Origin: Candidatus Campbellbacteria bacterium
Lineage (GTDB): Bacteria > Patescibacteriota > Minisyncoccia > Phycocordibacterales > GCA-2747955
Length of the DNA: 64,000 nucleotides
Assembly (NCBI GenBank): GCA_002747955.1
Contig: PDQZ01000008.1
Span: 5,983-69,982, forward strand
Direction: 5' to 3'
Below the pieces are notes generated by a model. The model searched no databases, had not been told where the DNA came from, and was given only the letters and a program-made list of their open reading frames with translations. Shown here one piece after another: positions 10,546 through 31,033 of this stretch. The position numbers and the translations under genes are program-made. Every line of letters starts with the position of its first letter. The first letter of the stretch is position 1.

Positions 10546-10579
10546 CTACAAAAGTTTTATGAGAAAATAATTTTTAAAA

Positions 10580-12110: not shown

Positions 12111-12129
12111 ACAACTTTTTCATTTGTCC

Positions 12130-12204
12130 AGCCCTTCTGTCAGGAGGGGCTGTTTTTTAATGTAGAAACAAAACGCAATTTTGACGAAGTCAAAATTGCG
12201 TTTT
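12130..12204 (+). terminator. two stacked terminator hairpins (CAGCCC...GGGCTG+T-run; AAACGCAATTTTGAC-GAAG-GTCAAAATTGCGTTT)
   Basis: seen in sequence. Confidence 0.5.
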
Positions 12205-12226
12205 GCTAAAAATATTTTTCACAAAC

Positions 12227-12452
12227 AAAACTTTAAAAATGAGATACCTAACGCGGAAGCAAGCAAAAAACCCCGAGCCTTATTTGATATAAGATGAGGG
12301 GATTTTGTAACAAACAGGTTTTAATTGTATTTAGTAAAATTTTAAAAATTGGATGAAGCGCGAGGCGTCGAGTAAAAAAATTTGGATACGTATGTTTTAT
12401 TACGTTGAGAAATTTTTTTATGAAGACAACGAAGCGATTCGCCATTTTTAAA
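12227..12452 (-). repeat. MITE-like repeat family A, copies A3a (half) + A3b (inverted partner of A2)
   Basis: 12336-12452 is reverse complement of 10420-10545. Confidence 0.7.
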
Positions 12453-12458
12453 TTTTTA

Positions 12459-13502
12459 CTAGTTGTCAATCCAGTATTGAGGCTTCTCCGGACACCCACT
12501 CTCTCCATCAGACAAATCTTTTTCACACCAATTGTAAATTTTATCATTTAAGTAAACCACAACAGTATCTACTGTTTTGAACTGCAAAGCTGCTTTATCA
12601 ATTTGTGCCCTTATTTCAGGTAAAGCACAGTGGTCTGGTCCATTCATATTTCCTGTTAAATAAACTCTTGCTGTCCTGTCTTTAACCGTTACAGTTTTAT
12701 ATTTTAAATCCTCATATCCTTTTAGTGTATTCCTATGGTCTTTTTCTAAATCAGTTTCAGAAAGTTCAAAAAGTTTTTTATAAGTAGCATCTAAAACACC
12801 TTTAGTTTTTGGAACTTTATAAGGAGCGAATTTTACTCCTACCCCACAACCAATTTTCCCTTTTCCATAAATTAAAGGAACATTGACAGTTGTATGGCTA
12901 AAGTCTTCATCTGTTGTACCATCTAGACATTTTGGTTTAGCGTATTCTTTACAAGCCTTCATGGTACAAGTAACCATTTCATTTTCTTGAACCATACAGC
13001 TGTTGCATCCATCAAAAAATGACTTACATTCTTTCGGAAGCATGTCTTTCCAGCTGTTTTGGTCATAAACTTGCTTTTCTTGTGCATCTTCTTCTTTATT
13101 TTCATTTCCACTTTCTTCATCTCTTTCTCCCTCCGTTACTTCTGTATTTGTTTCATCGTTCTGGCTAACTTCATTTCCACCTTCTTCATTTCCATTTTCT
13201 TTTTTATTTCCGCCTTCATCAGAAACATTTTCTTTTTCAATTTTTAAACACTCTTTTGTCACTTCGTCCCATCTATAATTTTCAAATTCACCACAAGCCC
13301 TTCTGTTTTCCTCCTCAAGCTCTTCTTGGTACTGTGTAACATCCTCTTCTGATATATCCTCTTGGTTTATGTTTTCAATATTTTCTTGTTTGTTTGTATT
13401 TCCAAAATTAAATCCAAAAACATTTGCAATGTCTTTAAAATAAAATCCTAAAACCCCAACAAAAATCAAGAAAAGAACTAAAATTATTATTTTACCTTTC
13501 AT
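12459..13502 (-). CDS. secreted/membrane-anchored protein with acidic low-complexity linker and C-terminal GerMN-like domain
   Basis: N-terminal TM, E/N/G-rich region, C-terminal pattern VYLTGNMNGPDHCALPEIRAQIDKAALQFKTVDTVVVYLND. Confidence 0.4.
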   Translation of the reverse strand: MKGKIIILVLFLIFVGVLGFYFKDIANVFGFNFGNTNKQENIENINQEDISEEDVTQYQEELEEENRRACGEFENYRWDEVTKECLKIEKENVSDEGGNKKENGNEEGGNEVSQNDETNTEVTEGERDEESGNENKEEDAQEKQVYDQNSWKDMLPKECKSFFDGCNSCMVQENEMVTCTMKACKEYAKPKCLDGTTDEDFSHTTVNVPLIYGKGKIGCGVGVKFAPYKVPKTKGVLDATYKKLFELSETDLEKDHRNTLKGYEDLKYKTVTVKDRTARVYLTGNMNGPDHCALPEIRAQIDKAALQFKTVDTVVVYLNDKIYNWCEKDLSDGESGCPEKPQYWIDN

Positions 13503-13596
13503 ATTTTTATTTTATATTGTTAATATATTTATTATACATAAAATAAAAAAATTTAAAAGCCTTAAATTTACTAATAGTTTATTTTTGAAAAAAGCC

Positions 13597-13651
13597 CATT
13601 TTCGCTCTTTTAAAATTAAAGTTGAGCGAAAATGGGCTTTTTTCAAAAATT
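13597..13651. repeat. long hairpin AAAAAAGCCCATTTTCGCTC...GAGCGAAAATGGGCTTTTTT (partner of 16805-16862)
   Basis: 20-bp stem; same stem with flipped loop at 16805-16862. Confidence 0.6.
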
Positions 13652-13654
13652 TGC

Positions 13655-13660
13655 TATAAT
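13655..13660 (+). promoter_or_regulatory. TATAAT -10 box 6 nt upstream of eno ATG
   Basis: ttgctataattattacATG. Confidence 0.4.
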
Positions 13661-13666
13661 TATTAC

Positions 13667-14959
13667 ATGTTTAAATTATTCAAAAAAAATACAAATAAAA
13701 TTAAAACTTTAAAAGGTTATCAAATCTTAGACTCTCGTGGAAATCCCACAATCGAAGTCGAACTTGTTTTAGAAAACAGAATTAAAGTTTGGTCCTCTGT
13801 TCCGTCAGGAGCTTCAACTGGAAAATATGAAGCAGTGGAGCTAAGAGATCAAGACTCAAAAGACTTTGGAGGTAAAGGTGTTACTCAAGCTATCAAAAAT
13901 ATTGAACAAAAAATTTTCCCAGCCATCAAAGATATAAACATCACAAACCAAAAACAAATCGACATTGCAATGCTAAAACTTGATGGCACAAAAAACAAAT
14001 CAAGCCTAGGAGCAAATGCAATTTTAGCTGTTTCAGAAGCCGTGTGTAGAGCAGGAGCTATTGTTTCAAAAAAGCCACTTTACAAATACATCGCTGAAAT
14101 TTCAGAAAACAAAAATTCTTTATTTTGCCCAAGACCATTTTTCAATATTGTAAACGGGGGAGTGCATGCAGGTTCACAAATCGCTACACAAGAGTTTATG
14201 GTTTCTCCAGCTTTTGAAACTTTTGAAGAAAACTACAAAGCAGCAGCTGAAATCTACCAAGTTTTAAAAAAGATTTTAAAAGAAAAGTTTGGACAAAACT
14301 CAGAACTTTTGGGAGATGAAGGAGGTTTTGCTCCGGTTGATTTTAAAAACGAAAAAGAAGTTTTAGAAACCATAAAAGAGGCTGTAAAAAAAGCAGGTTA
14401 CGAAGGAAAAACAGACTTTGCTTTAGACGTGGCTGCATCTGAATTTTACCAAAACTTAAAATACAATTTAGGTTTTAAAAAACCAAAAGATGAAATCAAA
14501 ACTTCAGAAGAAATGATAACTTTTTATAAAAAACTCAAACAAGATTTTCCAAACTTAATTTCAATCGAAGACCCGTTTGATCAAACTGATTTTTTAGCTT
14601 TTGCAAAACTTAAAAGAGAGTTTCAAAATCAAGTTCAAATCGTTGCAGACGATTTAACAGTTACAAACACAACTCGGATTCAAAAAGCCATTGACCACAA
14701 ATCAGCAAATGCACTGCTTTTGAAAGTAAATCAAATCGGAACAATCACAGAATCAATTGAAGCTTTCAAACTTGCAAAACAGAACGAGTGGAAGGTGATG
14801 GTTTCTCACAGATCTGGTGAAACAACAGACGACTTTATCGCAGATTTTGCAGTGGGAGTGGGGGCAGACCAGATTAAATCAGGTGCAACAGCAAGAGGAG
14901 AAAGGGTTGTAAAATACAACCGACTTTTATATATAGAAAAAGCCATAAAAATATCATAA
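13667..14959 (+). CDS. eno: enolase (phosphopyruvate hydratase)
   Basis: GYQILDSRGNPTIEVEL, SHRSGETTDDFIADFAVG; listed TTG start at 13622 lies inside hairpin, ATG at 13667 preferred. Confidence 0.95.
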   Translation: MFKLFKKNTNKIKTLKGYQILDSRGNPTIEVELVLENRIKVWSSVPSGASTGKYEAVELRDQDSKDFGGKGVTQAIKNIEQKIFPAIKDINITNQKQIDIAMLKLDGTKNKSSLGANAILAVSEAVCRAGAIVSKKPLYKYIAEISENKNSLFCPRPFFNIVNGGVHAGSQIATQEFMVSPAFETFEENYKAAAEIYQVLKKILKEKFGQNSELLGDEGGFAPVDFKNEKEVLETIKEAVKKAGYEGKTDFALDVAASEFYQNLKYNLGFKKPKDEIKTSEEMITFYKKLKQDFPNLISIEDPFDQTDFLAFAKLKREFQNQVQIVADDLTVTNTTRIQKAIDHKSANALLLKVNQIGTITESIEAFKLAKQNEWKVMVSHRSGETTDDFIADFAVGVGADQIKSGATARGERVVKYNRLLYIEKAIKIS

Positions 14960-15041
14960 ACTTTGTTTACCAACCTAAACAATATTTATTTTTGTTTTCA
15001 AAGCTAAATTATGATATTATTATACTAATATTATAATAATT

Positions 15042-16781
15042 ATGGATACACAAAATATTCGAGATTACATTTTAGAAATGGATCTTTTAACAAAAGAAGA
15101 AGAAGAGAAAATAGAAGAGTTTATGTTTCAAAATGACAAAAACTTTTTAGATTCAATGTTCGAGCTTGATATTTTAGACAATCAAACTTTAAACAAAATC
15201 ACCGCTTCAATTTTAGGTACAAAATTTGTAAACCTAAAAGAAAAAATAATCGACTTTGAAACTTATTCGAAAATACCATTGCCAATTTCAGAAGAACACA
15301 ATTTAATTTGTTTTGAACAGAACGACAATTTTTTAAAAGTGGCTTTCAGTGATATTCTAAACATTCAAGTTTTAGAAGAAGTTTTTGCTCAAAATCAAAA
15401 AGTGGAGTTTTTCTATGCAGACAAAAATGAAATTTTAGAAAAAATCGCTCAATACAAAAAACTAATTGAGGAAAATGTTATTTTAAAAAATCAAAAATCT
15501 GTTTCTAAAATTTTAAAACTTGACGAGTTTGGTTTTAAAAATCAAAAAGATGTTCCACAAGAATACATCAACGACATTGTTTCAGACTTGAACACAGAAA
15601 AATTTGTCCAAGGACTTTTAGAACACGCCGTTTCTCAAAAAGCTGACTTTGTTTTCTTAACTCCATCTGACCAAGATATTTTAGTTTCTTTCAGAATTTT
15701 TGACCGATCTTATCAGATTATGCAAATTGATTTAAAAACTCTGTTTTCAATCGTTTCAAAACTTAAAGTTTTCTGTGATATAAATATTTTTGAAAAATCA
15801 CTCATTAAAGAGGGAAGCTTCAAAGCTGAAATTTTAGGCAAAGTTTACACGGTTTTTTTAACAATCGTTCATACAGATTTTGGAGAAGCAGTTACTTTAG
15901 AAATCACTCAAGACAAAAACTTTAAAGCAAATATTTTTGACTTAAGTTTAAAACAAAGACATTTGTTCTTATCTGCTTTGAAAAAAGATGCTGGTTTTTT
16001 CACTATTTTTGGAGAAGATGAATTTGCTAAAAAAGAAACTCTGTATTCATTTTTAGAAACCGATATTAAAAAAAACAAAGAAGTTTATTCTTTTGAAGTT
16101 AACCCGTCTTTAAATCTTTCTTATGTCAAACAAATTTCAGTGAACGAAAATGAAAATCTACTTCCTGTTTTTGAAAGCATTTTAAAAACAGAACCTGAAA
16201 CACTGGCTGTTGAAGATGTTAGAAAAACTTCTTTCCCAGCTTTGTTTAACTATACAAACTTTTCAAAAAAAGTTATTTTATCTTCAAATAAAAAAATCGA
16301 AAATTTTGTTCAAAACTTTCTAGATTTTGACTTTAACAAAGGGCAAGTGGTTAAAAACTTATCTATTTGTTTAAATCACACTGAATTTGGTTTGCTTCAA
16401 GATCAAAATACTAAAAAATATGTTTTGAAAAAAGATGATATTAAACTTATAAAATCATTTTTTACAAACGATCAATTGCAAGAACTTTTTGTTCAAAACG
16501 GTTTTTACAAAAAAAGAGTCTTTAGTTTAGAAAAAATTGACTTTTATACTAAAAAAACAAACAAAAAAGAAAAAAGTGTTTACAAAAAAGTTCAAGTTAC
16601 TAAAGGAATTTTTAATTTAGGTTTATTTTTAGAAAAATGTTTTTTGAACAAATATGATAAACTAAAAATTAAAAATGAAATCAAAAAGGAGGTTAAAAAA
16701 TCTGTTTTAGAAAACGCTTTGATTTTATCTGCTAAAAAAGTTGTCGATATAAAAGATGTTTTAAAATATTTGAAAAAGTAG
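15042..16781 (+). CDS. protein with GspE/PilB N-terminal (MshEN-like) domain, no ATPase domain
   Basis: N-terminal 140 aa resemble T2SS-E N-domain; no Walker motifs in remaining 440 aa. Confidence 0.3.
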   Translation: MDTQNIRDYILEMDLLTKEEEEKIEEFMFQNDKNFLDSMFELDILDNQTLNKITASILGTKFVNLKEKIIDFETYSKIPLPISEEHNLICFEQNDNFLKVAFSDILNIQVLEEVFAQNQKVEFFYADKNEILEKIAQYKKLIEENVILKNQKSVSKILKLDEFGFKNQKDVPQEYINDIVSDLNTEKFVQGLLEHAVSQKADFVFLTPSDQDILVSFRIFDRSYQIMQIDLKTLFSIVSKLKVFCDINIFEKSLIKEGSFKAEILGKVYTVFLTIVHTDFGEAVTLEITQDKNFKANIFDLSLKQRHLFLSALKKDAGFFTIFGEDEFAKKETLYSFLETDIKKNKEVYSFEVNPSLNLSYVKQISVNENENLLPVFESILKTEPETLAVEDVRKTSFPALFNYTNFSKKVILSSNKKIENFVQNFLDFDFNKGQVVKNLSICLNHTEFGLLQDQNTKKYVLKKDDIKLIKSFFTNDQLQELFVQNGFYKKRVFSLEKIDFYTKKTNKKEKSVYKKVQVTKGIFNLGLFLEKCFLNKYDKLKIKNEIKKEVKKSVLENALILSAKKVVDIKDVLKYLKK

Positions 16782-16804
16782 TTTAAAATTTTATAAAACT
16801 TAAA

Positions 16805-16862
16805 TAAAAAAGCCCATTTTCGCTCAACTTTAATTTAAAAAAGTGCGAAAATGGGCTTTTTT
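16805..16862. repeat. long hairpin, flipped-loop partner of 13597-13651
   Basis: AAAAAAGCCCATTTTCGC...GCGAAAATGGGCTTTTTT. Confidence 0.6.
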
Positions 16863-16941
16863 ATTTCCCACACTGTGATAAAATTAAAACAATAAAATGT
16901 CAAATATTGACAGAAATAATAATTAAATATATAATAATTTT

Positions 16942-18444
16942 ATGAATGAAGGATTTAAAAAATATGTTCAAAAAGAAAAAGAGGTTTTAAAGGAGGTTCA
17001 AAGCAAACAAGAAAATGCAACTTCTGATGAAACATCAAAAGAGACACAAAAACAAATTTCTGAAGATTTATCTCAACAAGAAAAAGATACTCAAAGCCTT
17101 GAAGAATTTTTAGAAAAAGATTTAGAAGAAAATGACAACAGAGTTACTCCTGAAAGATTTGCTGAAATAAGTTTTGAAGAACAAACAAAAAAAAGTTTAG
17201 ATATATTTGAAAATCAAATTGAAGAAAATGATAATTTGATAAATTCCGAAATAAACTTGAAAATTCAAGACCTAGAAAACGAACTTCAAAGTTTACCAGA
17301 TGACCAAAAACAGGAACACATTGAAAGTTTAAAGCAAGAAATTTCAGAAATGTTTGATCAAAAAATTAATCTGTACAGTCGAAAATCAAACGAAGCTTTA
17401 GACTTGATTGCTCAAAACTACGAACCAACAAATGAAGACGCTTTAGAAGATCAAAATTTTTACCAAAACTCTTTTGAAGCAAAAAAACAAGCATATATTG
17501 AATCCCAAACAAAACAACAAGAAACAATTATTCAAAATCTTGATAGTTTACTTATTCCAGACAAAAAAGATCAAGCAGACTCACTTGGTGAAGGAGTTTT
17601 AGACGCAAAAGATTTTCCGCCCACTCCAAAACCAATTGACCTAAATTATGTTTCACAGAAAGCTTTAGAAAAATTTCAAAACGAAATGGATGTTTATTTA
17701 AAAGCTGATATTTCAAAAATAGGAGAAGACGGAAAAAAAGAAATTTCAAAGATTTATCAAAAACTTAAAAATGGAACTTTTGAAGACAAAAAGCAAGAAC
17801 AAGACGCGCAAAATCTTATTCAAGAAATAGAAAAAAATTTTGATTTTGCTAAAAAAAGTCAAGATATTCCAGAAAATTGTAAATCTTTAAATTTAAAAAA
17901 CAACATAGAAAATCAAGAAGATAACACAGACAGCACAAACAACCAAAATCAACCTTTTCCAGAAGAAGGTTTTAAAAAATCTTTCAAAAACACTTTTTCA
18001 GGAATGGCTAAAAGTGCAGAAAAAGATCTAGAAGTTTTCAAGGAGGTTTTTGATACCCATGACAAAATTTTGCAAGAAACTGTTCAAAAAATTGAAGGTT
18101 TTGTAAACGATGAAAACGGTACAATTTTAGATAAAATGAAAAGAATGCCACAAAAGAGCCTTTATCTTGCAGGGGCAGCGTCTGGGGGTATGGCAGGTTT
18201 TGGTTTAAAAAGTTTAACTACTTTAGGAAAAACAGTAACATTGCCTTTAAAACACCCATTGAAAACAGCGGGTATTGGTGCAGCGGGGTATTTTGGTTTT
18301 AAAGCTTTAAAATTCATCTTTATAAAATCAATGCCTTATTATCTATTCTGGAAATTTGTTGTAAAACCAGAATTGAAAGAAAATGGAGCTTGGGAAACAT
18401 TTAAAAAATTCGGTAGAGTTAAAAAAGAACATTGGTGGTTATAG
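16942..18444 (+). CDS. acidic coiled-coil protein with Gly-rich hydrophobic C-terminus (hypothetical)
   Basis: E/Q/K-rich, C-terminal GAASGGMAGFGLK... Confidence 0.4.
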   Translation: MNEGFKKYVQKEKEVLKEVQSKQENATSDETSKETQKQISEDLSQQEKDTQSLEEFLEKDLEENDNRVTPERFAEISFEEQTKKSLDIFENQIEENDNLINSEINLKIQDLENELQSLPDDQKQEHIESLKQEISEMFDQKINLYSRKSNEALDLIAQNYEPTNEDALEDQNFYQNSFEAKKQAYIESQTKQQETIIQNLDSLLIPDKKDQADSLGEGVLDAKDFPPTPKPIDLNYVSQKALEKFQNEMDVYLKADISKIGEDGKKEISKIYQKLKNGTFEDKKQEQDAQNLIQEIEKNFDFAKKSQDIPENCKSLNLKNNIENQEDNTDSTNNQNQPFPEEGFKKSFKNTFSGMAKSAEKDLEVFKEVFDTHDKILQETVQKIEGFVNDENGTILDKMKRMPQKSLYLAGAASGGMAGFGLKSLTTLGKTVTLPLKHPLKTAGIGAAGYFGFKALKFIFIKSMPYYLFWKFVVKPELKENGAWETFKKFGRVKKEHWWL

Positions 18445-18516
18445 AAAAAATGAAATTTTATAATAAAAAACAGAAACTGTGTTTCTGTTTTTTATTATAA
18501 AATTTCATTTTTATCT

Positions 18517-19428
18517 TTACCATTTACTCCACTTTGAAATTAAAAGCATTAAAATAACCATTATTAAGGAAATAACAATAATCATTGTAAAATCATGTGG
18601 ATGACCTAAAAACAAATGTTTTTGCTTTGTTGGAATTGTAATGATTGTAATAAACAAAGTTGCTGGTAAAATTGAAAAAGTTGTGATTGTGAAAATCCTT
18701 GAAAGTCTGTGCATTTTAACGTTTAACAACGAATTGTTTGTGTCTCGGAGTTCGCGAAGTTGATCTTTGATATTTTCAAGCTGATCGATTGTTTTTTGAT
18801 ATGAAAGGTTTATGATTTCAATCCTTTTAATTTCTTTTTGGTCAAAGAAATCCTCAGCTGTTGAAAAGAAGCTTTCCCAAAAATCGTCGTGACTTCTGAT
18901 ATGTTTTTTAAAATCAATTAATTTTCTGTTTATGTGAGAAATTTCATAAACCATTTTTCTTTCATTTCCGTCAAAAACTTTTTTTTCAATTTCTTCAATT
19001 TTAACTTCGATTTTTTTCAATTCAGCAATTAAGTTTTCATATATTTTTTCAAAAAAGTAAATGAAGGTATTTGAAATTTTACTATTTTGAGTTTGCCCTC
19101 TATAAAAGTCAGAACCGTTGTCAAAATTTGCTTTGAATTTTTCAAGTCCCTTGTCTTTTTTGCAAACAAGCGAAATTAAATAATCTTTCCCTAAAATCAA
19201 TTTAATTTTATTTTTAATAAATTCATCTTTTTCCAAAAAAGGAACATCAACTGAAACAAAAAGATTACTGTAAGATGAAATAACTTTGTTTCGGTTACTG
19301 TCTTCTATAAACTTATTGGCAACATAAGGACTAATTTGGTATTTGTCGACCACCTCTTCTAGTTTATCTTTATCCAAAGTTGAAAATTCATACCAAGCTA
19401 TATTTCTATGAAAGTGTATTTTTAACAT
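18517..19428 (-). CDS. CorA-like fold protein (cytoplasmic coiled-coil domain plus two C-terminal TM helices; no GMN motif)
   Basis: architecture only; 303 aa. Confidence 0.3.
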   Translation of the reverse strand: MLKIHFHRNIAWYEFSTLDKDKLEEVVDKYQISPYVANKFIEDSNRNKVISSYSNLFVSVDVPFLEKDEFIKNKIKLILGKDYLISLVCKKDKGLEKFKANFDNGSDFYRGQTQNSKISNTFIYFFEKIYENLIAELKKIEVKIEEIEKKVFDGNERKMVYEISHINRKLIDFKKHIRSHDDFWESFFSTAEDFFDQKEIKRIEIINLSYQKTIDQLENIKDQLRELRDTNNSLLNVKMHRLSRIFTITTFSILPATLFITIITIPTKQKHLFLGHPHDFTMIIVISLIMVILMLLISKWSKW

Positions 19429-19604
19429 ATTATATTATTATGTATATAATTATATATTTAAAATTTAAAAAACACAAATTTTGATTTATCCTTTTTAGCT
19501 ATTGCATTATTCAATTTATTTATATATAATAAATACATCAAGCCTTAATAGAACTTGATTTTATTGAGTATTGATAATTTTTTAAAAATTTAAAAATAAA
19601 AATT

Positions 19605-19877
19605 ATGAATAAAGGACAATTAGTAGAATTTATCGCTGATAAAGTTGGATCAACAAAAGCAGATGCAGAAAGAATGCTTGAAGCATTCATGGAAGCAGTT
19701 ACAGAAACACTTAAAAAAGAAGATTCGGTAGCATTAACAGGTTTTGGAGCATTCTCTATTTCACATAGAAAAGCAAGAACTGCAAGAAACCCAAAAACAG
19801 GAGCAGAAGTAAAAGTTCCAGCAACAAAAGCACCTAAATTCAAAGCAGGTAAAAAACTAAAAGAGGCTGTTAAATAA
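19605..19877 (+). CDS. hup: DNA-binding protein HU
   Basis: MNKGQLVEFIADK...GFGAFSISHRKARTARNPKTGAEVKVPA. Confidence 0.9.
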   Translation: MNKGQLVEFIADKVGSTKADAERMLEAFMEAVTETLKKEDSVALTGFGAFSISHRKARTARNPKTGAEVKVPATKAPKFKAGKKLKEAVK

Positions 19878-19892
19878 TTAGTTTTAACTTAA

Positions 19893-19980
19893 AAAACCAA
19901 AATTTCGTGAAAGCGTTATTTTGGTTTTTTAAATATTTTGTTAAAAATGCCCGCAGCCTTCGGCTGCGGGCATTTTTTTC
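19893..19980 (+). terminator. tandem terminator hairpins after hup (AACCAAAAT...ATTTTGGTT; GCCCGCAGCC-TTCG-GGCTGCGGGC + T-run)
   Basis: seen in sequence. Confidence 0.55.
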
Positions 19981-20001
19981 TTTTTATGATAAAATATATT
20001 T

Positions 20002-21417
20002 ATGAAAATTTATAACACTTTAACCAAAACCAAACAAGAGTTTGAGCCAGTTGAAAAAAACAAAGTTTTGTTTTACCAGTGTGGTCCAACTGTTTACTGG
20101 AACCAGCACATTGGAAACTTGCGTTCAGTTGTTTTGGCTGACTTTATAAACAGAACTTTTAAGTATTTAGGATACGAAGTTTTGTTTGCACGAAATTACA
20201 CAGATGTGGGACACCTAAGTGGGGACAATGAAGGTAATGCCGATACGGGTGAAGACAGAATGGAAAAAGCTTCAAAAAGAGAAAACTTGAATCCAGAAGA
20301 AATTGCTCAAAAATATATCCAAACTTACAACAAAGATGTAAGTTTATTAAACACAATAGAGCCAACTTTTAAACCAAAAGCAACAGAATACATAGAAGAA
20401 CAAAAAGAAATGATAAATATTTTGTTTCAAAAAGGTTTTGCTTATGTTACAAAACTTGGAATTTATTTTGATGTTTCAAAAGCCGAAAACTATCACAGAC
20501 TTTCTGGACAAAAAACAGATTTTAACATTTGCGGGGCAGGAGCCGGAGATGTCACAGATTCTGAAAAGAAAAACAAAGAAGATTTTGCTTTATGGTTTTT
20601 CAAAACAGGAGCGCACAAAAACGCTTTGCAAACTTGGCAGTTTAAAGAATTTAATAATTATTTTGAAAACGGGCAAGGCTTCCCAGGCTGGCATTTAGAG
20701 TGTTCTGCAATGGCTTGGAAACTTTTGGGAGATACTATTGATATTAAAATGGGAGGAATTGAACACATTCCAATTCACCATACAAATGAAATTGCACAAT
20801 CTGAAAATACAACTGGTAAAAATTATGCAAATTTTTATTTACACAACGAGCACCTTTTGGTTGACGGAAAGAAAATGTCAAAATCAGAAGGAACATCATA
20901 TTTGCTTTCAGATATTATTGACAAGGGTTATTCACCACTTGATTTAAGGTTTTTGTTTTTACAAGCGCATTACAGATCAAAACAAAACTTCACTTGGGAC
21001 TCACTTGAAGCTTCAAAAAAAGCATTTGATAAAATCAAAAACAAACTTGGACAAATTGAAAGTGTTGGAAAAATAAATTCTGAATTCCAGAAAAAGTTTT
21101 TAGAAAAAATCGAAGATGACTTTAACACACCCGAAGCACTTGCTGTTTTACACGAAGTTTTAAAATCAGATATTCCAGACCAAGACAAAAAAGCCACAAT
21201 TTTAGATTTTGATAAAATTTTTGGTTTAAAACTTTCAGAAGTCCAAAAAGAAAAAGAAGAAGAAATGCCTCAAGAAGTTGCTCAGATTTTAGAACAAAGA
21301 AAACAAGCCCGTGAAGAAAAAAACTGGCAAAAGTCAGATGAACTCAGAGACAAACTTGCAGAACTTGGATACATTGTTAAAGACGGTCCTGACGGACAAA
21401 CAGTGACTAAAAAATAA
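20002..21417 (+). CDS. cysS: cysteinyl-tRNA synthetase
   Basis: YQCGPTVYWNQHIGN, GWHLECSAM, KMSKSEG. Confidence 0.9.
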   Translation: MKIYNTLTKTKQEFEPVEKNKVLFYQCGPTVYWNQHIGNLRSVVLADFINRTFKYLGYEVLFARNYTDVGHLSGDNEGNADTGEDRMEKASKRENLNPEEIAQKYIQTYNKDVSLLNTIEPTFKPKATEYIEEQKEMINILFQKGFAYVTKLGIYFDVSKAENYHRLSGQKTDFNICGAGAGDVTDSEKKNKEDFALWFFKTGAHKNALQTWQFKEFNNYFENGQGFPGWHLECSAMAWKLLGDTIDIKMGGIEHIPIHHTNEIAQSENTTGKNYANFYLHNEHLLVDGKKMSKSEGTSYLLSDIIDKGYSPLDLRFLFLQAHYRSKQNFTWDSLEASKKAFDKIKNKLGQIESVGKINSEFQKKFLEKIEDDFNTPEALAVLHEVLKSDIPDQDKKATILDFDKIFGLKLSEVQKEKEEEMPQEVAQILEQRKQAREEKNWQKSDELRDKLAELGYIVKDGPDGQTVTKK

Positions 21418-21458
21418 AAGTTGCAAAAACAAAATACAAAACACAAAACACAAATTTA

Positions 21459-21506
21459 AAACACGATTTTGGCCCACACAACCACCCACGCCAAAATCGT
21501 GTTTTT
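21459..21506. repeat. hairpin family C copy (stem ACACGATTTTGG, loop CCCACACAACCACCCACG)
   Basis: 12-bp stem + conserved loop; T-run follows. Confidence 0.55.
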
Positions 21507-21570
21507 CATTTTTCCACATCTTTAAAATAACAAGTTTGCTTTTTTTTTTCAATAATATATATCACTTTAT

Positions 21571-21684
21571 AGGGGACCAGACACAGTCTCAACCAAACAA
21601 CGACGCAAAGTGCAGAACCTTACCGCAAAACGAGACTGTGTCTAACCCCTCCCCAAACGCCCCTACTTATGTGAGGGTTTTTTA
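21571..21684 (+). ncRNA. candidate small structured RNA (GC-rich, own promoter-like AT box, own terminator), identity unknown
   Basis: AGACACAGTCTC pairs GAGACTGTGTCT across about 45 nt; ends in CCCCTAC...GAGGG + T-run; GC far above local background. Confidence 0.3.
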
Positions 21685-21798
21685 ATATTATTTTCTATTT
21701 GTATTTTTTCAAAAAAGGTATATAATATATATATTAGAAATTCTGAAAAGAATTTTTGCGAAAGCAAAAATTCTTTTTCTTTAAAAATAAAAAATACA

Positions 21799-23106
21799 AT
21801 GTTTGATTTAAAAGTTATAAACTCAGTTCTAGAAGAACTGCAAGAAACAAAAAATATTTCAAAAGATGAAGTAATTGACGCTATTGAGGAAACGCTAGCA
21901 GCCGCATACAAAAAACAATACGGAGAAAGAGGGCAGGTTGTAAAAGCAAAACTAAACATGGATACAGGAAATGTTGATTTTTTCAGAATCAAAGAAGTAG
22001 TTTCAGACAACGAAGTTATTCCAGAAGATGAGCTTGAAAAAATGGACAAAGAACAATATTTAGCAGAAAAAGAAAAAGGAAGAACAAAGTTCATTGACCA
22101 AAAACACATTATGCTTGATTCTGCAAAAATGATCAAAGCCGATGCCAAAGTTGGAGATGAAATCGTTTTTGATTTGGAAAACAAAACAGATTTTGGACGT
22201 GTAGCAGCAATGGCTGCAAAACAAACAATCCGACAAAAAATCAGACAAGCTGAAATGGGACATATTCAAGAAGAATTTGGAGATAAAGAATTTGAAATTG
22301 TTCAAGGAGAAGTTTTGAAACAAGAAGGAGGTTTTGTTTATGTTGATTTAGGAAAAGCCGAAGCTGTAATGCCAGCCTCAGAGCAGTTACCAAAAGAAAA
22401 ATACAAAACAGGAGACAAAATCAAAGCTCTGCTTTTGAAACAAAAAAACAGAGATGAAGGAAAACTAAGTTTAATGGTTTCAAGAACTCACCCTGAATTT
22501 TTAAGAAAACTTTTTGAAATCGAAATTCCAGAATTAAAAGAAGGAATTGTTGAAATCAAAAAAATCGTTCGTGATCCAGGATTTAGAGCAAAAGTTGCAG
22601 TTGTCTCACACGACGAAGATCTTGATGCAGTTGGAACTTTTATCGGACAAGGTGGTTCAAGAGTTATGGCAGTTTCAAACGAGCTTTCAGGAGAAAGAAT
22701 TGACCTTGTTGAATATTCAGAAGACGAAGTTGAGTACGCTAAAAACGCAATGATGCCAGCTGAAATTGAAAGCGTGGAACTTGAAGGTGACGACAAAGTG
22801 ATTGTAAATGTTTTATCTGAAAACTTCACAAGCACAATTGGACGAAATGGACAAAATGTAAAGCTTGCTTCAAGGCTTTTATCAAAAAGAATTGATGTTC
22901 TAAAAATCGATCAAGATCAAGAAAGCCAAGACAAAGAAGAAGAGCCAAAAAAAGAACTTGAAAATGAAGTTGAAGAAACAAAAACAGAAGATGAGGTAAA
23001 AGAAGAAAAAGAAGTTGTTGAAACAACAGAAGAAAAGAAAGATAAAGAAGAACCAAAAGAAAATCAAGAACAAGACAAAGAGGAGAAAACAAAAACAGAA
23101 GAATAA
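21799..23106 (+). CDS. nusA: transcription termination/antitermination factor NusA with acidic C-terminal tail
   Basis: NusA N-domain, S1 and KH regions (GRNGQNVKLASRLL). Confidence 0.9.
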   Translation: MFDLKVINSVLEELQETKNISKDEVIDAIEETLAAAYKKQYGERGQVVKAKLNMDTGNVDFFRIKEVVSDNEVIPEDELEKMDKEQYLAEKEKGRTKFIDQKHIMLDSAKMIKADAKVGDEIVFDLENKTDFGRVAAMAAKQTIRQKIRQAEMGHIQEEFGDKEFEIVQGEVLKQEGGFVYVDLGKAEAVMPASEQLPKEKYKTGDKIKALLLKQKNRDEGKLSLMVSRTHPEFLRKLFEIEIPELKEGIVEIKKIVRDPGFRAKVAVVSHDEDLDAVGTFIGQGGSRVMAVSNELSGERIDLVEYSEDEVEYAKNAMMPAEIESVELEGDDKVIVNVLSENFTSTIGRNGQNVKLASRLLSKRIDVLKIDQDQESQDKEEEPKKELENEVEETKTEDEVKEEKEVVETTEEKKDKEEPKENQEQDKEEKTKTEE

Positions 23107-23115
23107 AAAACAAAA

Positions 23116-23150
23116 ACACGATTTTGACTTCGTCAAAATCGTGTTTTTAA
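23116..23150 (+). terminator. terminator hairpin ACACGATTTTGAC-TTCG-GTCAAAATCGTGT + T-run
   Basis: seen in sequence. Confidence 0.6.
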
Positions 23151-23179
23151 TTTTCAAAAATAAAGTGTATAATATTTAT

Positions 23180-23713
23180 ATGAGAAATAATTCAAACATT
23201 TTCGTATCAGAGACAAAAAACCTTTTTGAAAAAATTTTTGGGAAAGATTTTGACTTTCAAAATTTGTTAAAAAGTGCACTTTTTGTTATTTTAATTTTAG
23301 GTTTTTTGGTATACTATCTTTTTGATATTAAAATTAATTTTCACCTTTTTGGATTAAAAAGTTTATTTTTTGGTTTTTTTATTTTAACTTTTTTTGTTTC
23401 CTTTTTGGTCCCATTATTTTTTATTCAAAAAATAAAAACCAAAGTTATTTTTGAAAAAGATTTTGTTGTATTAAAAAGTTTTTATAATCAAAAAAATATT
23501 TCTGAAAAGAAAATATATTATTCTAAATTAGAAAAAATTATTTTAAAAAGAAATAAAAACTTTTTTGGATTTCAAGGTGTTATCTTGGTCCAACCAAGCA
23601 AACAAAGAAGCCAGAAAAATTATATATATTTTTATTTAGACACAAACGAAATGACAAATTTTCAATATTTTATTGAAAAAAATAGTGATTTGAAAAGAAA
23701 AATAGAAGCATAA
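23180..23713 (+). CDS. small polytopic membrane protein (hypothetical); start moved to ATG after TATAAT at 23169
   Basis: listed ORF start 23015 overlaps nusA and encodes K-rich junk; TATAAT then ATG at 23180. Confidence 0.45.
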   Translation: MRNNSNIFVSETKNLFEKIFGKDFDFQNLLKSALFVILILGFLVYYLFDIKINFHLFGLKSLFFGFFILTFFVSFLVPLFFIQKIKTKVIFEKDFVVLKSFYNQKNISEKKIYYSKLEKIILKRNKNFFGFQGVILVQPSKQRSQKNYIYFYLDTNEMTNFQYFIEKNSDLKRKIEA

Positions 23714-23767: not shown

Positions 23768-23890
23768 AAAAACTTGAAAAATTGGATAAAGCGCGCAGAG
23801 ACAAACAAAAAAACCTCCAGAGGTATTTAATATACGGTGAGAAGTTTTTTTGTGCAGTCGACAAAGTTAGGCACTCATTTTTCAAGTTTT
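23768..23890 (-). repeat. MITE-like repeat family A, copy A4; terminal repeat overlaps murA stop codon
   Basis: AAAAACTTGAAAAATTGG ... CATTTTTCAAGTTTT. Confidence 0.6.
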
Positions 23891-25202
23891 AAATTTCTTC
23901 AATTTTTGCTCCGACACTATTTAATCTTTCCACAATATCCGCATACCCCCTTTTAATATTATAAATATCATTCAACCTTGACTCTCCGTTAATTCCCAAA
24001 AGAGTAATCAAAATCGCAGCAGAAGGCCTTAAAGCAGGTGGGCAGTTTATGGTTGCAGGTTTCAGACTCTTGTTTCCTTCAATTTCAATTCTATGTTTAT
24101 CGAGAAGCTTAATTTTAGCCCCCGTTTTTTTCAACAAAGTAAAATACTCAATTCTTTTTTCCCACATCCAGTCATGAATTAAACTTTTTCCCTCAGCTTG
24201 TAAACAAATTGGTACAAAAAATGGTAAGTTATCAATATTGATCCCAGGGTAGGGTAAAGCATGAATTTTATCAGGAAGTGCTTTAAGTTTTTTAAATTTA
24301 GAAATTGAAATATCAGCCAAAACAGTTTTTTTGTTATAAGACAAATACGTTTTTGAAATTTTAAATTCAATCCCCATACTTTCCATTTTCAAAATTTCAA
24401 GTCTTAAAAAGTTAATAGGACATCTTCTAATCACAAAATCTTTTGACTTTGTAGAAACAGCAGCCGAGATAAAAAACATTGACTCAACAGGGTCTTCGCT
24501 GTTGTAGACTTTAATATTTTTATTTATATTTTTCTTTCCATGAACGACAATTTTATCAGACAAAAATTCAATTTTAATACCCAAAGATTTCAAAAAGTAA
24601 ATTACATCCATAACCATATAATTTTGCTGTCCAAAGTGAATTGTAGTTTTTCCAGCAATTCCAGCAGCACAAATTAAAATATTTTCAGTAGCAGTATCAG
24701 ACGCCTCATACATTACAATTTCAGCAGGCTTTAATTTGTCTTTTGAAATATAATATCCGTCATCTTTAACTTTAATTTTCACTCCCAATTTCTCAAGCCC
24801 CGACTTATGAGCTGAAATTGTCCTTTCTCCCATTTTACAACCTCCCGCCTGAGGGATCTTAAAATTGTCCAAGTGATGAACCAAAGGTCCAATGGCCATT
24901 AAAAAAGAACGAATTTTTACAGCAGACTCTGCATATATATTTTTAAAGTTATATTTTTTAGGTGGAGTAAGTTCTAAAACATCATTTTCTTCTCCAATCC
25001 ATTTACACAAAACCCCAATAGATTCAAAAATTTCCAAAACTCGAAAAACTTCTTCGGTTTTAGGAATTTTGTGTAAAGTCGTTTTTCCTTTATTTAAAAG
25101 TGCTGCGTGTAAAAGCCCCATTGCTCCATTTTTGGAAGTGTTGGTGTTAATTTTTCCTTTAAGTTTTCTGCCACCTTCAATTTTTATATTTATTTTTTTC
25201 AT
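23889..25202 (-). CDS. murA: UDP-N-acetylglucosamine 1-carboxyvinyltransferase
   Basis: EPT-family; active-site region QAGGCKMGERTIS; ATG at 25202 preferred over GTG at 25220. Confidence 0.9.
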   Translation of the reverse strand: MKKINIKIEGGRKLKGKINTNTSKNGAMGLLHAALLNKGKTTLHKIPKTEEVFRVLEIFESIGVLCKWIGEENDVLELTPPKKYNFKNIYAESAVKIRSFLMAIGPLVHHLDNFKIPQAGGCKMGERTISAHKSGLEKLGVKIKVKDDGYYISKDKLKPAEIVMYEASDTATENILICAAGIAGKTTIHFGQQNYMVMDVIYFLKSLGIKIEFLSDKIVVHGKKNINKNIKVYNSEDPVESMFFISAAVSTKSKDFVIRRCPINFLRLEILKMESMGIEFKISKTYLSYNKKTVLADISISKFKKLKALPDKIHALPYPGINIDNLPFFVPICLQAEGKSLIHDWMWEKRIEYFTLLKKTGAKIKLLDKHRIEIEGNKSLKPATINCPPALRPSAAILITLLGINGESRLNDIYNIKRGYADIVERLNSVGAKIEEI

Positions 25203-27770: not shown

Positions 27771-27860
27771 TGAAAGCCCGAAATTTAAGAAGGTTTTTTG
27801 GAAAAAGGTAGAAGCGAAGCTTCTACCTTTTTCCAAAAAACCTTCTTAAATTTCGGGTTT
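27771..27860. repeat. long perfect palindrome, family B (copy B3), abutting tRNA-Arg 3' end
   Basis: GAAAGCCCGAAATTTAAGAAGGTTTTTTGGAAAAAGGTAGAAGC-GAAGC-mirror. Confidence 0.65.
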
Positions 27861-28759: not shown

Positions 28760-31033
28760 ATGAATAATGAAAATAATAATTTAACTCAAAATAATTCTTC
28801 TGAGCAGACTGTAACAAACTACAAAGATCAAAGAATTATCCAAATTCCTCTATCTATTATCAAACCAAATCCTTATCAACCAAGACTTGCTTTTTCTGAT
28901 GACAAGCTTTCAACTCTTGCTTCTTCAATTTCTCAATACGGAGTTTTGCAACCTATTGTTGTTTCAAGAAAACAAAACCAAGATGGTTCTGAGTTTTTTG
29001 AAATCATCGCAGGGGAAAGAAGGTATAGAGCAGCGAAAATAGCAGGGCTTCAAACTATTCCAGCTGTTTTAGCTGATGAAAAAATTCAAAATGTAGATAA
29101 ATTTGAACTTGCTATTATTGAAAATATTCAAAGAGAAGACTTAAATCCCGTTGACAAAGCCAAGGCTTTTAAAAAACTTCACGAGGAGTTTGGTTTAACT
29201 CACAGTCAAATTGCAGAAAAAATGGGTAAATCAAGAGAGTATATTTCAAACTCAATCAGACTTTTGGATCTACCTGATAAAATTTTAGAAGGAATTGTTA
29301 AAGAAGAAATTACAGAAGGTCACTCAAAACCCCTTTTGATTTTAAAAGAAAGACCTTTCGAACAAAATATTTTATTTCAAAAAATCAAAGATAAAAAATT
29401 AACTGTTCGTGCAGCCAACAATCTTGCCAAAAAACTTCTATCAGGTGAAAAAGAAATTGTTGAAACTGGAAACAGCAACAATCAGTATAAAATTATTGAA
29501 AAAAAACTTTCAGAAAAACTTGGAACGAAAGTTTCAATTGCTCAAAAAGATCAAGGAGAAGGTGGAAAATTAACCATTGAGTTTTTCTCACAAGAAGATT
29601 TAAACAAAATTGTTTCTTTGGTTCGTGGAAAGGGACTTGTTGGAGTAGATGAAGCTTTAGGCGGTGATATAGAAAAAGAAAATCAAGAATTAAAAAATGA
29701 TTTTTCTGAAAATTTAAAAACAGCAGAAACTAAAAATCCAGCTTTCTTTGGTGATGAAATTGAAAAATTAGATAGTCAAGAAAAAGGGCAAGAAAAAGAA
29801 CAAGAAGTTCAAGGTCAAAAGATTGAAGTTGAAGTTGAAAATAAAGTAGAGCAAGAGCAGATTTTGGCTTCGCCAAAATCTGCCCAAAAAGAAGTTGAAG
29901 AAAGTCAAAAAAAAGAAACAGAAGAAAACTTAAATGATTTAGATGGTTTTAATATTTCATCTTTTTTACACAAAAACGAAGCTACAAAAGTTCAAGTTCA
30001 AGGTTCAGATGAAGATTTTAAAAAAGATTTAGAAGAATTTAAGAGTATTGAACTTGAACAGAATCAAGAAGAACAAAATGAAGTTCAAAGTCAAATTCAA
30101 ACTCCAGCGTTTGAAGGAGTAGACAACTTTGGAGATTTAAAAACAGAAACAACCACACCAACAAAACCAGAAAAGGTAGATTTTACCAAATCAAAACAAG
30201 AAATTACAAGTTTTGGACCAAAACCAAAAATAGAAGTTAAAGAAGAACAAAATGTTAACCAAGAAACTAAAGACGATCAAAACATCGATGACATTTTTTC
30301 TTATTCAAAACCAGAACCTGCTTCTGTTTCAAAAACTCCAGAAACAAAAGTAAACGAGTTTGCAAAAGGTGACTTTATGTTAAATAAAGAAAAACTTGAT
30401 GATTTAGAATACGAAAAAAATAATCAAACTGTTTTTGGAAGTCAAAACCAAGAAAAAGTAAATCAAATTTTGACTCAAAAATTTGAAGAAAATCAAAAAG
30501 CCAAAGAAAAAACCTTTGAAAACCAGAATTTAAATCAAAATGTTTCAGAAATGCCAAAAGCAAATGAGACAAAAAACGAAATGAAACCAAGTCAAAATAT
30601 TGAAAACAGTTCAATTTATCAAGAATTTTTAAAATCAAAAGAAAAAATAGCAGAGCAACAAAAAAGAGTTTTCAGTGGTAAAAAACCAGCTTTTTCTGGT
30701 GAAACAGCAGGATTTATGTCTTCACAAGGTGTCATAAACAATGAAAATCAAACAGAATTAAAACCCGAAGATTACAAAGATCCAGTTGAGGAAACTATCG
30801 AACAAATGAAACATGTCGTAGAAGAAATCGATAATTCAGACGAGGCAATTCTTGTAAACAGTGGTAGTGATTTTATCCCCAAAGAAGCTCTAGAAAAAAA
30901 ACAAAATCAAGAAAATCAAGAAATTCAAAAACCAAAAAATCTAACTGAAATAACTCCAAAAAACCAGAAAAACTTGGAGCAAAAAAACGAAGACAAAAAT
31001 CTTCAAAAAGGTTTCGGTAATTTTACTTTATAA
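28760..31033 (+). CDS. parB: ParB/Spo0J-like protein with about 480-aa low-complexity E/Q/K-rich C-terminal extension; no parA adjacent
   Basis: ParB box GERRYRAAK, HTH region LTHSQIAEKMGKSREYISNSIRLL. Confidence 0.8.
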   Translation: MNNENNNLTQNNSSEQTVTNYKDQRIIQIPLSIIKPNPYQPRLAFSDDKLSTLASSISQYGVLQPIVVSRKQNQDGSEFFEIIAGERRYRAAKIAGLQTIPAVLADEKIQNVDKFELAIIENIQREDLNPVDKAKAFKKLHEEFGLTHSQIAEKMGKSREYISNSIRLLDLPDKILEGIVKEEITEGHSKPLLILKERPFEQNILFQKIKDKKLTVRAANNLAKKLLSGEKEIVETGNSNNQYKIIEKKLSEKLGTKVSIAQKDQGEGGKLTIEFFSQEDLNKIVSLVRGKGLVGVDEALGGDIEKENQELKNDFSENLKTAETKNPAFFGDEIEKLDSQEKGQEKEQEVQGQKIEVEVENKVEQEQILASPKSAQKEVEESQKKETEENLNDLDGFNISSFLHKNEATKVQVQGSDEDFKKDLEEFKSIELEQNQEEQNEVQSQIQTPAFEGVDNFGDLKTETTTPTKPEKVDFTKSKQEITSFGPKPKIEVKEEQNVNQETKDDQNIDDIFSYSKPEPASVSKTPETKVNEFAKGDFMLNKEKLDDLEYEKNNQTVFGSQNQEKVNQILTQKFEENQKAKEKTFENQNLNQNVSEMPKANETKNEMKPSQNIENSSIYQEFLKSKEKIAEQQKRVFSGKKPAFSGETAGFMSSQGVINNENQTELKPEDYKDPVEETIEQMKHVVEEIDNSDEAILVNSGSDFIPKEALEKKQNQENQEIQKPKNLTEITPKNQKNLEQKNEDKNLQKGFGNFTL

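Follow-up and report, generated by a model that had tools for sequence, protein, structure and literature searches.

We describe a family of hairpins in a 64,000-nucleotide stretch of DNA (contig PDQZ01000008.1 of GenBank assembly GCA_002747955.1, positions 5,983 to 69,982; hereafter the window) from a Candidatus Campbellbacteria bacterium. The long loops of these hairpins share a conserved core, CACAACCAC, and the stems vary from copy to copy and co-vary between their two arms. In our judgement the chances are about even that the hairpins are copies of a small palindromic DNA repeat of ~40-55 bp, dispersed and non-autonomous, which is confined to this Campbellbacteria lineage and a handful of relatives. 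A repeat acting at the DNA level is favoured by the mixed orientation of the loops, by a copy that has nothing to terminate and by in-frame copies in relatives, and equally by lineage-specific expansion, by arms that are common to other hairpin families of the genome and by the lack of a known RNA family. The preliminary description of this DNA, made from its letters alone, had also preferred a DNA element to an RNA motif. That preference proves the better supported one, although the loop may, less probably, act in RNA. The portion of the genome covered here amounts to ~76 kb, made up of the 64-kb window and ~12 kb of Logan contigs from the same sample, namely L096 (upstream of the window), L095 (downstream) and L085/L218, another contig of the same organism.

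A hairpin family with a conserved loop core

Six hairpins had been pointed out in the window beforehand, and all six are present where they had been placed. Their stems are perfect over 9-19 bp and their loops comprise 16-21 nt. Predicted RNA folding energies range from -15 to -29 kcal/mol (z of -4 to -10 against shuffles), with the loops unpaired. The exact 9-mer CACAACCAC occurs six times on the two strands of the window, compared with 0.19 +/- 0.42 times in 100 dinucleotide shuffles, none of which reached six. The motif is thus enriched over shuffled sequence. All six occurrences lie inside the loops of perfect hairpins, with none outside such loops and none in genes. The sixth exact match belongs to a seventh hairpin (57903-57934) that had been overlooked, and a further, variant copy lies at 40941-40975. 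Together with six copies on neighbouring contigs, the eight copies in the window bring the family to 14, all of them intergenic. BLAST similarity between copies is restricted to the 42-52 nt of the hairpin and stops there, so the copies are not segmental duplications.

Some particulars of the preliminary description needed amendment. The conserved loop motif is exact in five of its six hairpins, the copy at 44222 carrying the variant CATAACCCCAC (7/9 positions). The stem type CGATTTTG holds for four of the six, whereas the stems at 6272 and 63703 read CCCGAAAATTTGG and GCAGAATTTTGGC. The loops have the core nnACACAACCACnCA in common but not the full 16-mer that had been quoted for them. Ordinary terminators of the window are indeed short-looped, but their loops are GAA/TTC triloops closed by a C-G pair.

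An independent Logan assembly of the same sample matches the window at 100% across the 9.3 kb tested and contains hairpins of the same kind in its other contigs. The hairpins are therefore not assembly artefacts, although they coincide with assembly breaks in that Logan contigs terminate at them. A scan of genome contigs with a loose pattern yielded 80 matches, all of them due to chance (stems of at most 9 bp) and hence uninformative on distribution. The only true match in a metagenome scan with a 23-base pattern came from L085, i.e., from the same organism. No hairpin-embedded copies were found in scans of viral sequences, and no descriptions of such elements in Patescibacteria were found in the literature searched.

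With every copy turned to the same orientation, the loops read as strings of 13-19 nt made of A and C only, with the consensus nnACACAACCACnCA. Mean pairwise identity amounts to 0.93 for the 9-mer core, to 0.67-0.71 for the arms and to 0.48 for the loop nucleotides 5' of the core. In the stem alignment 93% of the cells are paired, and eight of the 15 pairs have changed on both sides. The resulting covariation score of 0.50 compares with 0.18 in shuffles, was reached by none of 500 shuffles and collapses when the partners are slid against each other. Of the three imperfect stems, two have G-U when read on the sense strand. The same core is carried by five or more unrelated stem types. Exact cores sit on the unrelated stems AGCACTTTT (57903) and GTTTTTTCTC (L096, 143); at L218 2002 a truncated core, AAAACCACCCAAA, is borne by a nested stem. 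A conserved flank around the copies, such as a tetranucleotide, was not seen in alignments with 25-nt flanks.

The covariance model of the family also matches, through its stem only, terminators with GAA/TTC triloops (23114-23146, 12171-12203, 44929-44959 and 29854-29886) as well as the base of perfect palindromes of 80-100 nt. These matches through the stem alone indicate that the arms come from a pool common to other hairpin families of the genome, and that the long loop is the part specific to this family. The ordinary triloop terminator at 23112-23148 (AAAAACACGATTTTGAC ttc GTCAAAATCGTGTTTTT) may serve as an example, since its stem is homologous to those of the copies at 21458 and 59391 and by itself scores 37 bits. 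Similar triloop hairpins with family-like stems lie at 12169-12205, 44932-44956 and 29857-29883. We take the combination of a conserved loop with variable arms to mean that some factor reads the loop sequence. This factor would be a single-strand-specific protein acting on DNA hairpins, which we prefer, or an RNA-binding factor; the data do not decide between the two.

Loop orientation and gene context

Both loop orientations occur, as had been claimed. The + strand of the window reads CACAACCAC at 10582, 21458, 44220 and 63698 and GTGGTTGTG at 6272, 59391, 57903 and 40941. This four-to-four division between C-type and G-type loops exists despite a GC skew that is positive across the whole window and despite genes that are mostly located on the + strand. 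Among the interpretable copies, including those of relatives, about 11 of 16 have the C-type loop on the sense strand of the neighbouring gene, a proportion that is not significant (binomial p ~0.2).

In all six of the originally described copies the hairpin is followed by a T-run on the + strand, again as stated before. At least five T among the 8 nt that follow the stem are present, on one strand or both, in 11 of the 14 copies and in an intergenic copy of the related genome L220 described below. T-runs on both strands, i.e., bidirectional ones, characterize five of the 14 copies (six if the copy at 44220 is counted) and the same L220 copy, whereas three copies have a T-run on the + (sense) strand only. 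Copies linked to tRNA genes are devoid of T-runs, and so are the cysS copies of the relatives. Three copies (those after cysS, at L218 5238 and at L218 6936) are the sole hairpin behind a gene, as is the L220 copy behind hisS; some others follow an ordinary terminator. The copy at 6272, which separates dprA from the divergently transcribed leuS and immediately precedes a leuS promoter of the leaderless type, has by this position nothing to terminate on the + strand. The hairpins share with intrinsic terminators a stable G/C stem followed by a T-run, but as a family have neither the short loop (3-8 nt) nor the sense-strand position behind a gene. In agreement, a consensus terminator scan for loops of 3-8 nt in the region 5200-23200 reported no family member. 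A comparison with Rfam 15, as suggested in the preliminary description, matched no copy to any family at the gathering threshold or at E<=1, the only matches being spurious ones of miRNA precursors on long palindromes.

The individual copies in the window are given here as arm, loop (in brackets) and arm, with their scores against the family model. Copy 1 (6272-6313, core CACAACCAC on the - strand, 55.8 bits) reads CCCGAAAATTTGG [gtgcgtggttgtgctg] CCAAATTTTCGGG and lies between dprA (-) and leuS (+), 25 nt 5' of the leuS ATG, with a T-run on the + strand only. Copy 2 (10580-10622, + strand, 62.2 bits), CCCGATTTTGA [caaacacaaccacacaat] TAAAATCGGG, contains one G-T pair, has an A-run and a T-run at either side and is found downstream of scpA and of a repeat of family B (see below). 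Copy 3 (21458-21505, + strand, 64.7 bits), the one singled out in the preliminary description, reads AAAACACGATTTTGGC [ccacacaaccacccac] GCCAAAATCGTGTTTT; no other hairpin separates the cysS stop codon (21417) from nusA, and the copy is framed by bidirectional A/T runs. Copy 4 (44220-44274, + strand, 61.3 bits), with the variant loop, reads AAATGTTGCCCGATTTTGA [taagcataaccccacag] TCAAAATCGGGCAACATTT and follows an ordinary terminator (44170-44194) upstream of a pilin gene. Copy 5 (59391-59434, core on the - strand, 61.5 bits), GCACGATTTTGAC [tgtttggtggttgtgttt] GTCAAAATCGTGC, has a T-run on the + strand only, is preceded by atpG and two ordinary terminators and lies 175 nt upstream of rpsS. 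Copy 6 (63698-63749, + strand, 64.0 bits), AAAAAGCAGAATTTTGGC [aaaccacaaccaccca] GCCAAAATTCTGCTTTTT, is placed with bidirectional runs between the convergent genes rpmE (+) and that for a pseudouridine synthase (-). Copy 7 (57903-57934, - strand, 19.4 bits), AGCACTTTT [tgtggttgtgtttt] AAAAGTGCT, combines the exact core with an unrelated stem, lacks a T-run and sits between two direct repeats of ~77 nt downstream of a tRNA-Leu gene. The variant copy 8 (40941-40975, - strand), GTTTTTTCTC [tgcgtggctgcgtcc] GAGAAAAAAC, lies inside a composite repeat downstream of a tRNA-Ser gene and is a paralogue of the copy at L096 143-177, which has the exact core. Five further copies are located on L218 (2002-2056, 3136-3176, 5238-5287, 5601-5646 and 6936-6972).

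Several other explanations for individual features were considered and discarded. The stretch 10589-10616 fits a promoter of the type TTGACA-16-TAAAAT at 11 of 12 positions, with the loop length as spacer, but the hexamers of the other copies are weak (CAAAAT, no T at -12). A T-box or leader was rejected on the grounds that there is no Rfam match and no room for Stem I and that half of the copies have the wrong orientation. Confinement of the motif to hairpin loops and the lack of a strand bias speak against a Chi site or an uptake sequence. An intrinsic polarity, with the T-run always following the G-rich orientation, did not survive counting, as in three copies the T-run is simply on the sense strand.

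Copies in related genomes

The preliminary description had proposed a search in related genomes, and its outcome is mixed. The genome L220 (GCA_054004075.1) contains two matches to the family model and L221 (GCA_964495605.1) a hairpin homologous to one of them, whereas L090 and L093 (~65% CysRS identity) are nearly without strong hairpins (0.5-0.7 per 10 kb, as compared with 5.9 in the window and 12.9 on L218). L219 has some hairpins, all of the triloop type. The family is a lineage-specific expansion in this Campbellbacteria lineage, with few relatives carrying it. Apart from an identical Campbellbacteria protein, the CysRS closest to that of the window shares 66% identity with it.

One of the L220 copies, AAGCAGAAAAATA[caaacacagcaacacag]TATTTTTCTGCTT, lies 48 nt past hisS with A/T runs on either side. 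The other, GCAGAAATTTC[aaacacaacgaccaca]GAAATTTCTGC, resides inside cysS and for this reason cannot be a terminator. L221 carries GCCGAAATTTC[gagcaacaccgaccca]GAAATTTCGGC at the same position of cysS. Both cysS hairpins consist of an 11-bp stem and a 16-nt A/C-rich loop. They amount to 39 nt in frame and encode AEIS-x5-EISA in a variable linker of the protein, a segment that is missing from five other homologues, that of the window included. The CysRS proteins of L220 and L221 are 71% identical. In the hairpin, two synonymous, compensatory substitutions have turned the A-T of the third stem pair into C-G. The cysS hairpin behaves like the in-frame palindromic elements of Rickettsia, and its persistence in two genomes could be due to selection on the fold or to correction of one arm by the other. 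The cysS insertion also suggested that a second arm might arise by fold-back copying of the flank. This proved ambiguous, as the arm core GAAATTTC is self-complementary and a serine codon differs in the 'empty' homologue. No in-frame copy with the loop core was seen in the genome of the window.

The window does contain a perfect palindrome in frame, GCAGATTTTGGC ttc GCCAAAATCTGC (29857-29883, encoding EQILASPKSAQ), in a low-complexity linker of a 757-aa ParB-like protein; it could have arisen when a triloop hairpin element inserted in frame. As an aside on the same relatives, TGA is a sense codon in L090, L093, L220 and L221 (64-66% CysRS identity). These have 14-29 in-frame TGA in five to nine genes, in-frame TGA aligns with Trp in CysRS, and the stops are all TAA or TAG. 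Neither the genome of the window nor L219 has in-frame TGA. The genetic code therefore differs between near neighbours of the clade.

The HUH transposase gene of the window

The preliminary description had considered a REP-like substrate of an HUH transposase and proposed to look for co-occurring HUH genes. One Y1/HUH gene is present in the window, but it belongs to an ordinary insertion sequence (IS) of the IS200 group with private ends and is not tied to the hairpins. The element (56450-57025, + strand) comprises tnpA (56551-56973), a left-end (LE) hairpin (56465-56480) and a right-end (RE) hairpin (57000-57016). In NCBIfam comparisons TnpA scores 119.8 bits with the IS200 model (cutoff 55) and 30.9 bits, below the cutoff of 80, with that for REP-associated tyrosine transposases (RAYT). 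Its end hairpins, ACCAGC-(G)TTTA-GCTGGT, were found only at the two IS ends in the window, and the family hairpin nearest to the gene is 930 bp away. The idea of a REP-like substrate thus finds no footing here, the sole HUH gene of the window being an ordinary IS200 gene with its own end hairpins and not a RAYT gene. For the same reason the IS200 TnpA was rejected as the mobilising enzyme of the family, since a self-contained IS with private ends accounts for it. Pfam annotation of ~50 window proteins revealed no other recombinase, nuclease or reverse transcriptase, and there is no IS in the window with ends matching the arms of the family.

In the sample the window TnpA is present as a single copy. 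Its homologues number 830 and are found mostly on contigs of 0.6-1.4 kb, which is what a multi-copy IS should produce. In another genome of Patescibacteria, a copy with 74% identity has the same LE hairpin with a compensatory change. A 67%-identical element that occupies several sites of one organism defines the ends as TTAATAGAAAAAACCACCGGCTTTAGCCGGTG...//...GAAACCACCGGCTTTTGGCCGGTGGTTGTCATT; the group to which this multi-copy element (L223-L232) belongs inserts directly behind terminator hairpins with T-runs. The window IS is placed likewise, with the terminator at 56422-56449 ahead of it. The RE end of the 67%-identical IS (GGTGGTTGT|CATT) gives the family core ACAACCAC(C) when reverse-complemented, and by eye the loop of copy 5 fits that end at 11 of 13 positions. 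The loop of copy 13 (AAAACCACC) corresponds to the LE flank and arm of the IS, and that of the L220 cysS copy has AACGACCA in common with the RE of the window IS. Nevertheless, both the loop core and the IS end are A/C-only strings and 7.9% of the consensus shuffles reach a 9-mer match between them (p ~0.08), so that the resemblance of the loop core to IS200-group ends, seen in sequence comparison, is only suggestive.

A proposed dispersed palindromic repeat and its rivals

If the hairpins are a dispersed DNA repeat, each copy would have an asymmetric A/C-only centre (nnACACAACCACnCA) that does not pair with itself, enclosed by two arms of perfect complementarity. Palindromic arms make such an element alike in either orientation save for its centre, which is why the loop appears 'flipped' relative to the genes. 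Copies that happened to land beside A/T runs behind genes would serve as Rho-independent, mostly bidirectional terminators and would be kept on that account. Elsewhere, copies would persist only at harmless sites, such as the space between divergent promoters or, in frame, the linker of a protein. The conserved loop core would most likely be a sequence-specific handle, read single-stranded in a hairpin or cruciform by a factor that spreads or maintains the element. The arms would need only to pair, and might be kept perfect by selection for the fold or by arm-to-arm correction.

Several points weigh against this interpretation. Among the window proteins no transposase or nuclease tied to the element was found. 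Target-site duplications and empty sites were not seen, no direct duplications flanking the copies, and the databases searched hold no close relative in which copies could be polymorphic for presence and absence. The arms diverge between copies more than the centre does, which is the reverse of classical REPs and MITEs (miniature inverted-repeat transposable elements). Retention of the cysS hairpin in two genomes with CysRS proteins of 71% identity could equally mean a structural function. Terminator activity is predicted from sequence, and loops of 14-19 nt are unusually long for intrinsic terminators. Finally, ~76 kb is only a part of the genome.

The same stem-loops could instead act in RNA, as 3'-UTR or terminator structures whose loop CACAACCAC binds a protein or another RNA in the transcript and thereby defines a post-transcriptional regulon rich in translation genes, a possibility that we regard as rather unlikely. 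A conserved loop on variable, co-varying stems is the classical signature of protein-binding RNA hairpins such as the iron-responsive element (IRE), boxB and CsrA-type sites, the cysS hairpin is conserved with a compensatory change, and the G-U pairs in two of the three imperfect stems fit in as well. The C-type loop is on the sense strand in ~11 of the 16 interpretable copies, including every sole-terminator copy (cysS, L218 5238, L218 6936 and L220 hisS) and the in-gene cysS copies. However, the sense strand of five copies shows the complementary G/U-rich loop, a ratio of 11:5 is not significant, and one copy is without an upstream gene on its T-run strand. Although many neighbours are aminoacyl-tRNA synthetase (aaRS), tRNA or ribosomal genes, translation genes predominate in such reduced genomes regardless. 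No Rfam family corresponds to the hairpins, no complementary target was found in the window, and the stems also occur on triloop terminators without the long loop. It is unlikely, too, that the loop itself is the mobile or convertible unit, an 'apex module' of ~13-16 nt inserted into, or copied between, the tips of existing terminator hairpins, possibly by an IS200-type Y1 (HUH) transposase acting on single-stranded tips or by template switching between hairpins. This proposal accommodates the presence of the same core on at least five unrelated stem types, each subtype being seen also with a GAA/TTC triloop or a long palindromic extension. It further draws on the reverse-complement match of the core to the RE hairpin end and tail of the multi-copy IS200 with the 67%-identical TnpA, on the resemblance of three loops (copies 5 and 13, L220 cysS) to IS ends and on the habit of the related IS group, one member of which is in the window, to insert beside terminator hairpins. 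Against this stand the A/C-only composition of both strings and the frequency with which shuffles reproduce the match, the differing RE tail of the window's own IS, the single-copy state of this IS and the lack of amplification of IS200 end hairpins. Moreover, IS200/IS605 transposition is seamless and requires both end hairpins, and there is no known mechanism for moving a 16-nt piece.

A more specific version, in which a single-strand-specific enzyme, most plausibly a Y1/HUH transposase of the IS200 type whose own RE end has the same string, would recognise or cleave the A/C-only core of 9-13 nt at hairpin tips and the loop module would be installed in or exchanged between terminator hairpins, appears decidedly unlikely to us. 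Very improbable, finally, is a double-stranded binding site for a nucleoid, replication or regulatory protein, bracketed by terminator arms and loosely resembling DnaA-type boxes (xxAxCCACA). An asymmetric core of 9-13 bp and its orientation-independence would suit a monomeric site, and several copies are located just upstream of promoters or genes (leuS, argS, rpsS). Yet perfect inverted repeats, for which a double-stranded site has no need, enclose every exact copy, no copies exist outside hairpins, the copies of relatives are in frame within cysS, and no candidate binding protein was identified.

Other repeats and features of the window

The genome harbours further hairpin and palindrome repeats. 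Family B comprises palindromic repeats of ~125 nt (1866-1977, 10419-10548, 12332-12458, 23768-23893, 36717-36843, 40010-40134, 55345-55472 and 63440-63561) with 70-88% identity between copies, tcaccgtatatttaatacggctc in the loops and no Rfam match; most copies are situated at a stop codon or a few bases away. Perfect palindromes with stems of 39-48 bp are unusual in bacteria. The window has five of them, with loops of 3 nt (27777-27857, 34037-34123, 40150-40248, 47141-47233 and 53377-53475); in four of the five the outer stem (GCCCGAAATTTTGG) fits one stem subtype of the family described above, and Logan contigs break there. In a third hairpin family (13581-13650, 16802-16866 and L096 1698-1762), AAAAAGCCCATTTTCGC and GCGAAAATGGGCTTTTT enclose an A/T-rich loop of 16-21 nt, stem and loop are both conserved (95%) and the loop occurs in both orientations. 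Composite repeats downstream of tRNA genes (40866-40933 and 41029-41096, 98.5% identical; 57814-57890 and the similar 57951-58028; L096 100-290) hold inverted copies of tRNA 3'-ends, a long imperfect hairpin (..CGAGTTCTTAGC..GCTTAGAACTGGTG..) and a family-loop hairpin bracketed by direct repeats. They may be integration scars or a tRNA-linked element. G+C-rich triloop hairpins with near-identical stems (GCCCGCAGCC-GAA/TTC and CCAGCGCCGAC-GAA/TTC) recur at 9274-9308, 19943-19977 and 5259-5283 and on L218 at 44-66, 1938-1964 and 3192-3228, so that even the 'ordinary' terminators of this genome form repeat families.

The window has a G+C content of 30%, three tRNA genes and a gene content typical of the Candidate Phyla Radiation (CPR), with DprA, type IV pilins, pilins of a type IV secretion system (T4SS), aaRS genes, ribosomal proteins and ATP synthase. 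Its 16S rRNA gene (53680-55172) is solitary, with protein genes next to it and no adjoining 23S gene, and is flanked by a long palindrome (53377-53475) on one side and a family-B repeat (55345-55472) on the other. LeuRS (6338-9205) contains an inserted NUDIX hydrolase domain (residues 268-388, 57 bits) that precedes the editing domain.

Significance and comparison with known systems

CPR genomes are tiny and streamlined, and repeated DNA is thought to be scarce in them. This CPR genome has several families of perfect-hairpin repeats at a density of roughly one per kb, and the family described here reverses the usual logic of REPs and MITEs in that the loop is conserved and the stems vary and co-vary. 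Should the loop be read by an HUH-type or another single-strand-specific protein, this would be a new route by which small elements spread and seed terminators; if the enzyme-based interpretation were true, it would be a REP-like system that reads the loop rather than the stem, in a CPR genome. A loop that is read in RNA would give CPR bacteria their first proposed signal of a post-transcriptional regulon. In either case the hairpins provide a practical marker for the lineage.

The closest published concepts are REP/REPIN sequences, the palindromic elements of Rickettsia and, in organelle genomes, repetitive hairpin-forming elements (PMC3333891, PMC3337134, PMC2800124). With the repetitive extragenic palindromic sequences (REPs) of proteobacteria and the REPIN-RAYT system the family shares short intergenic palindromes in many copies, often located behind genes as terminators or mRNA stabilisers, the occurrence in either orientation, lineage-specific expansion and a Y1/HUH gene in the same genome region. 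REPs differ by a conserved imperfect stem, a conserved flanking tetranucleotide of the GTAG/GGAG type and short loops; they often form inverted pairs (REPIN/BIME) and flank a RAYT gene present in one copy. Here, stems are variable and perfect, a 14-19-nt loop is conserved, copies are singletons and the sole Y1 gene is a canonical IS200 gene. Repeated intergenic palindromes are thus the one REP/REPIN hallmark that the family displays; conserved stem and flank, a RAYT gene flanked by repeats and inverted doublets are all absent. Given that the stem is not conserved, that conserved flank and doublets are missing and that no RAYT gene was found in the window, we do not count the family among the REP/RAYT systems. 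Its arms could pass for the terminal inverted repeats of a MITE, but there are neither flanking direct duplications nor a window IS with matching ends.

Rickettsia palindromic elements (RPEs) and the hairpin repeats of organelles (sponge mitochondria, PMC2800124) are likewise selfish hairpin repeats of small, reduced genomes. RPEs are intergenic and occasionally in frame in protein genes, much as the cysS copies of L220 and L221; they are, however, 100-150 bp long and conserved throughout, whereas the family has ~45 bp and is conserved in the loop core alone. A conserved motif of ~9 nt at the tip of a variable stem is also known from the hairpin origins of HUH Rep proteins in CRESS-DNA viruses and rolling-circle plasmids, but these have one site per replicon beside the rep gene, while the family has more than ten chromosomal copies and a motif unrelated to theirs, and no Rep gene was seen. 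Intrinsic terminators resemble the family in that a T-run follows a stable stem and an A-run often precedes it, at a distance of 15-50 nt from the stop codon upstream, but have loops of 3-8 nt instead of 14-19 nt. The terminators formed by pairs of DNA uptake sequences (DUS) in Neisseria also embed a genome-specific, over-represented word; in our family this word is single, lies in the loop instead of building the stem as an inverted pair, and never occurs outside hairpins or in genes. DNA uptake sequences as such are found about once per kb in both orientations, coding DNA included, as opposed to once per 6-10 kb and never in genes for the family core. The ends of IS200/IS605 elements and palindrome-associated transposable elements (PATEs), lastly, are hairpin-based single-strand elements as well, and the core has a short A/C-rich similarity to the LE/RE arms and tail. 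This similarity is statistically insecure; the IS-like string stands unpaired in the loop rather than building the hairpin, and the stems of the family are unrelated to the IS end hairpins (CACCRGC-TTYA-GCYGGTG).

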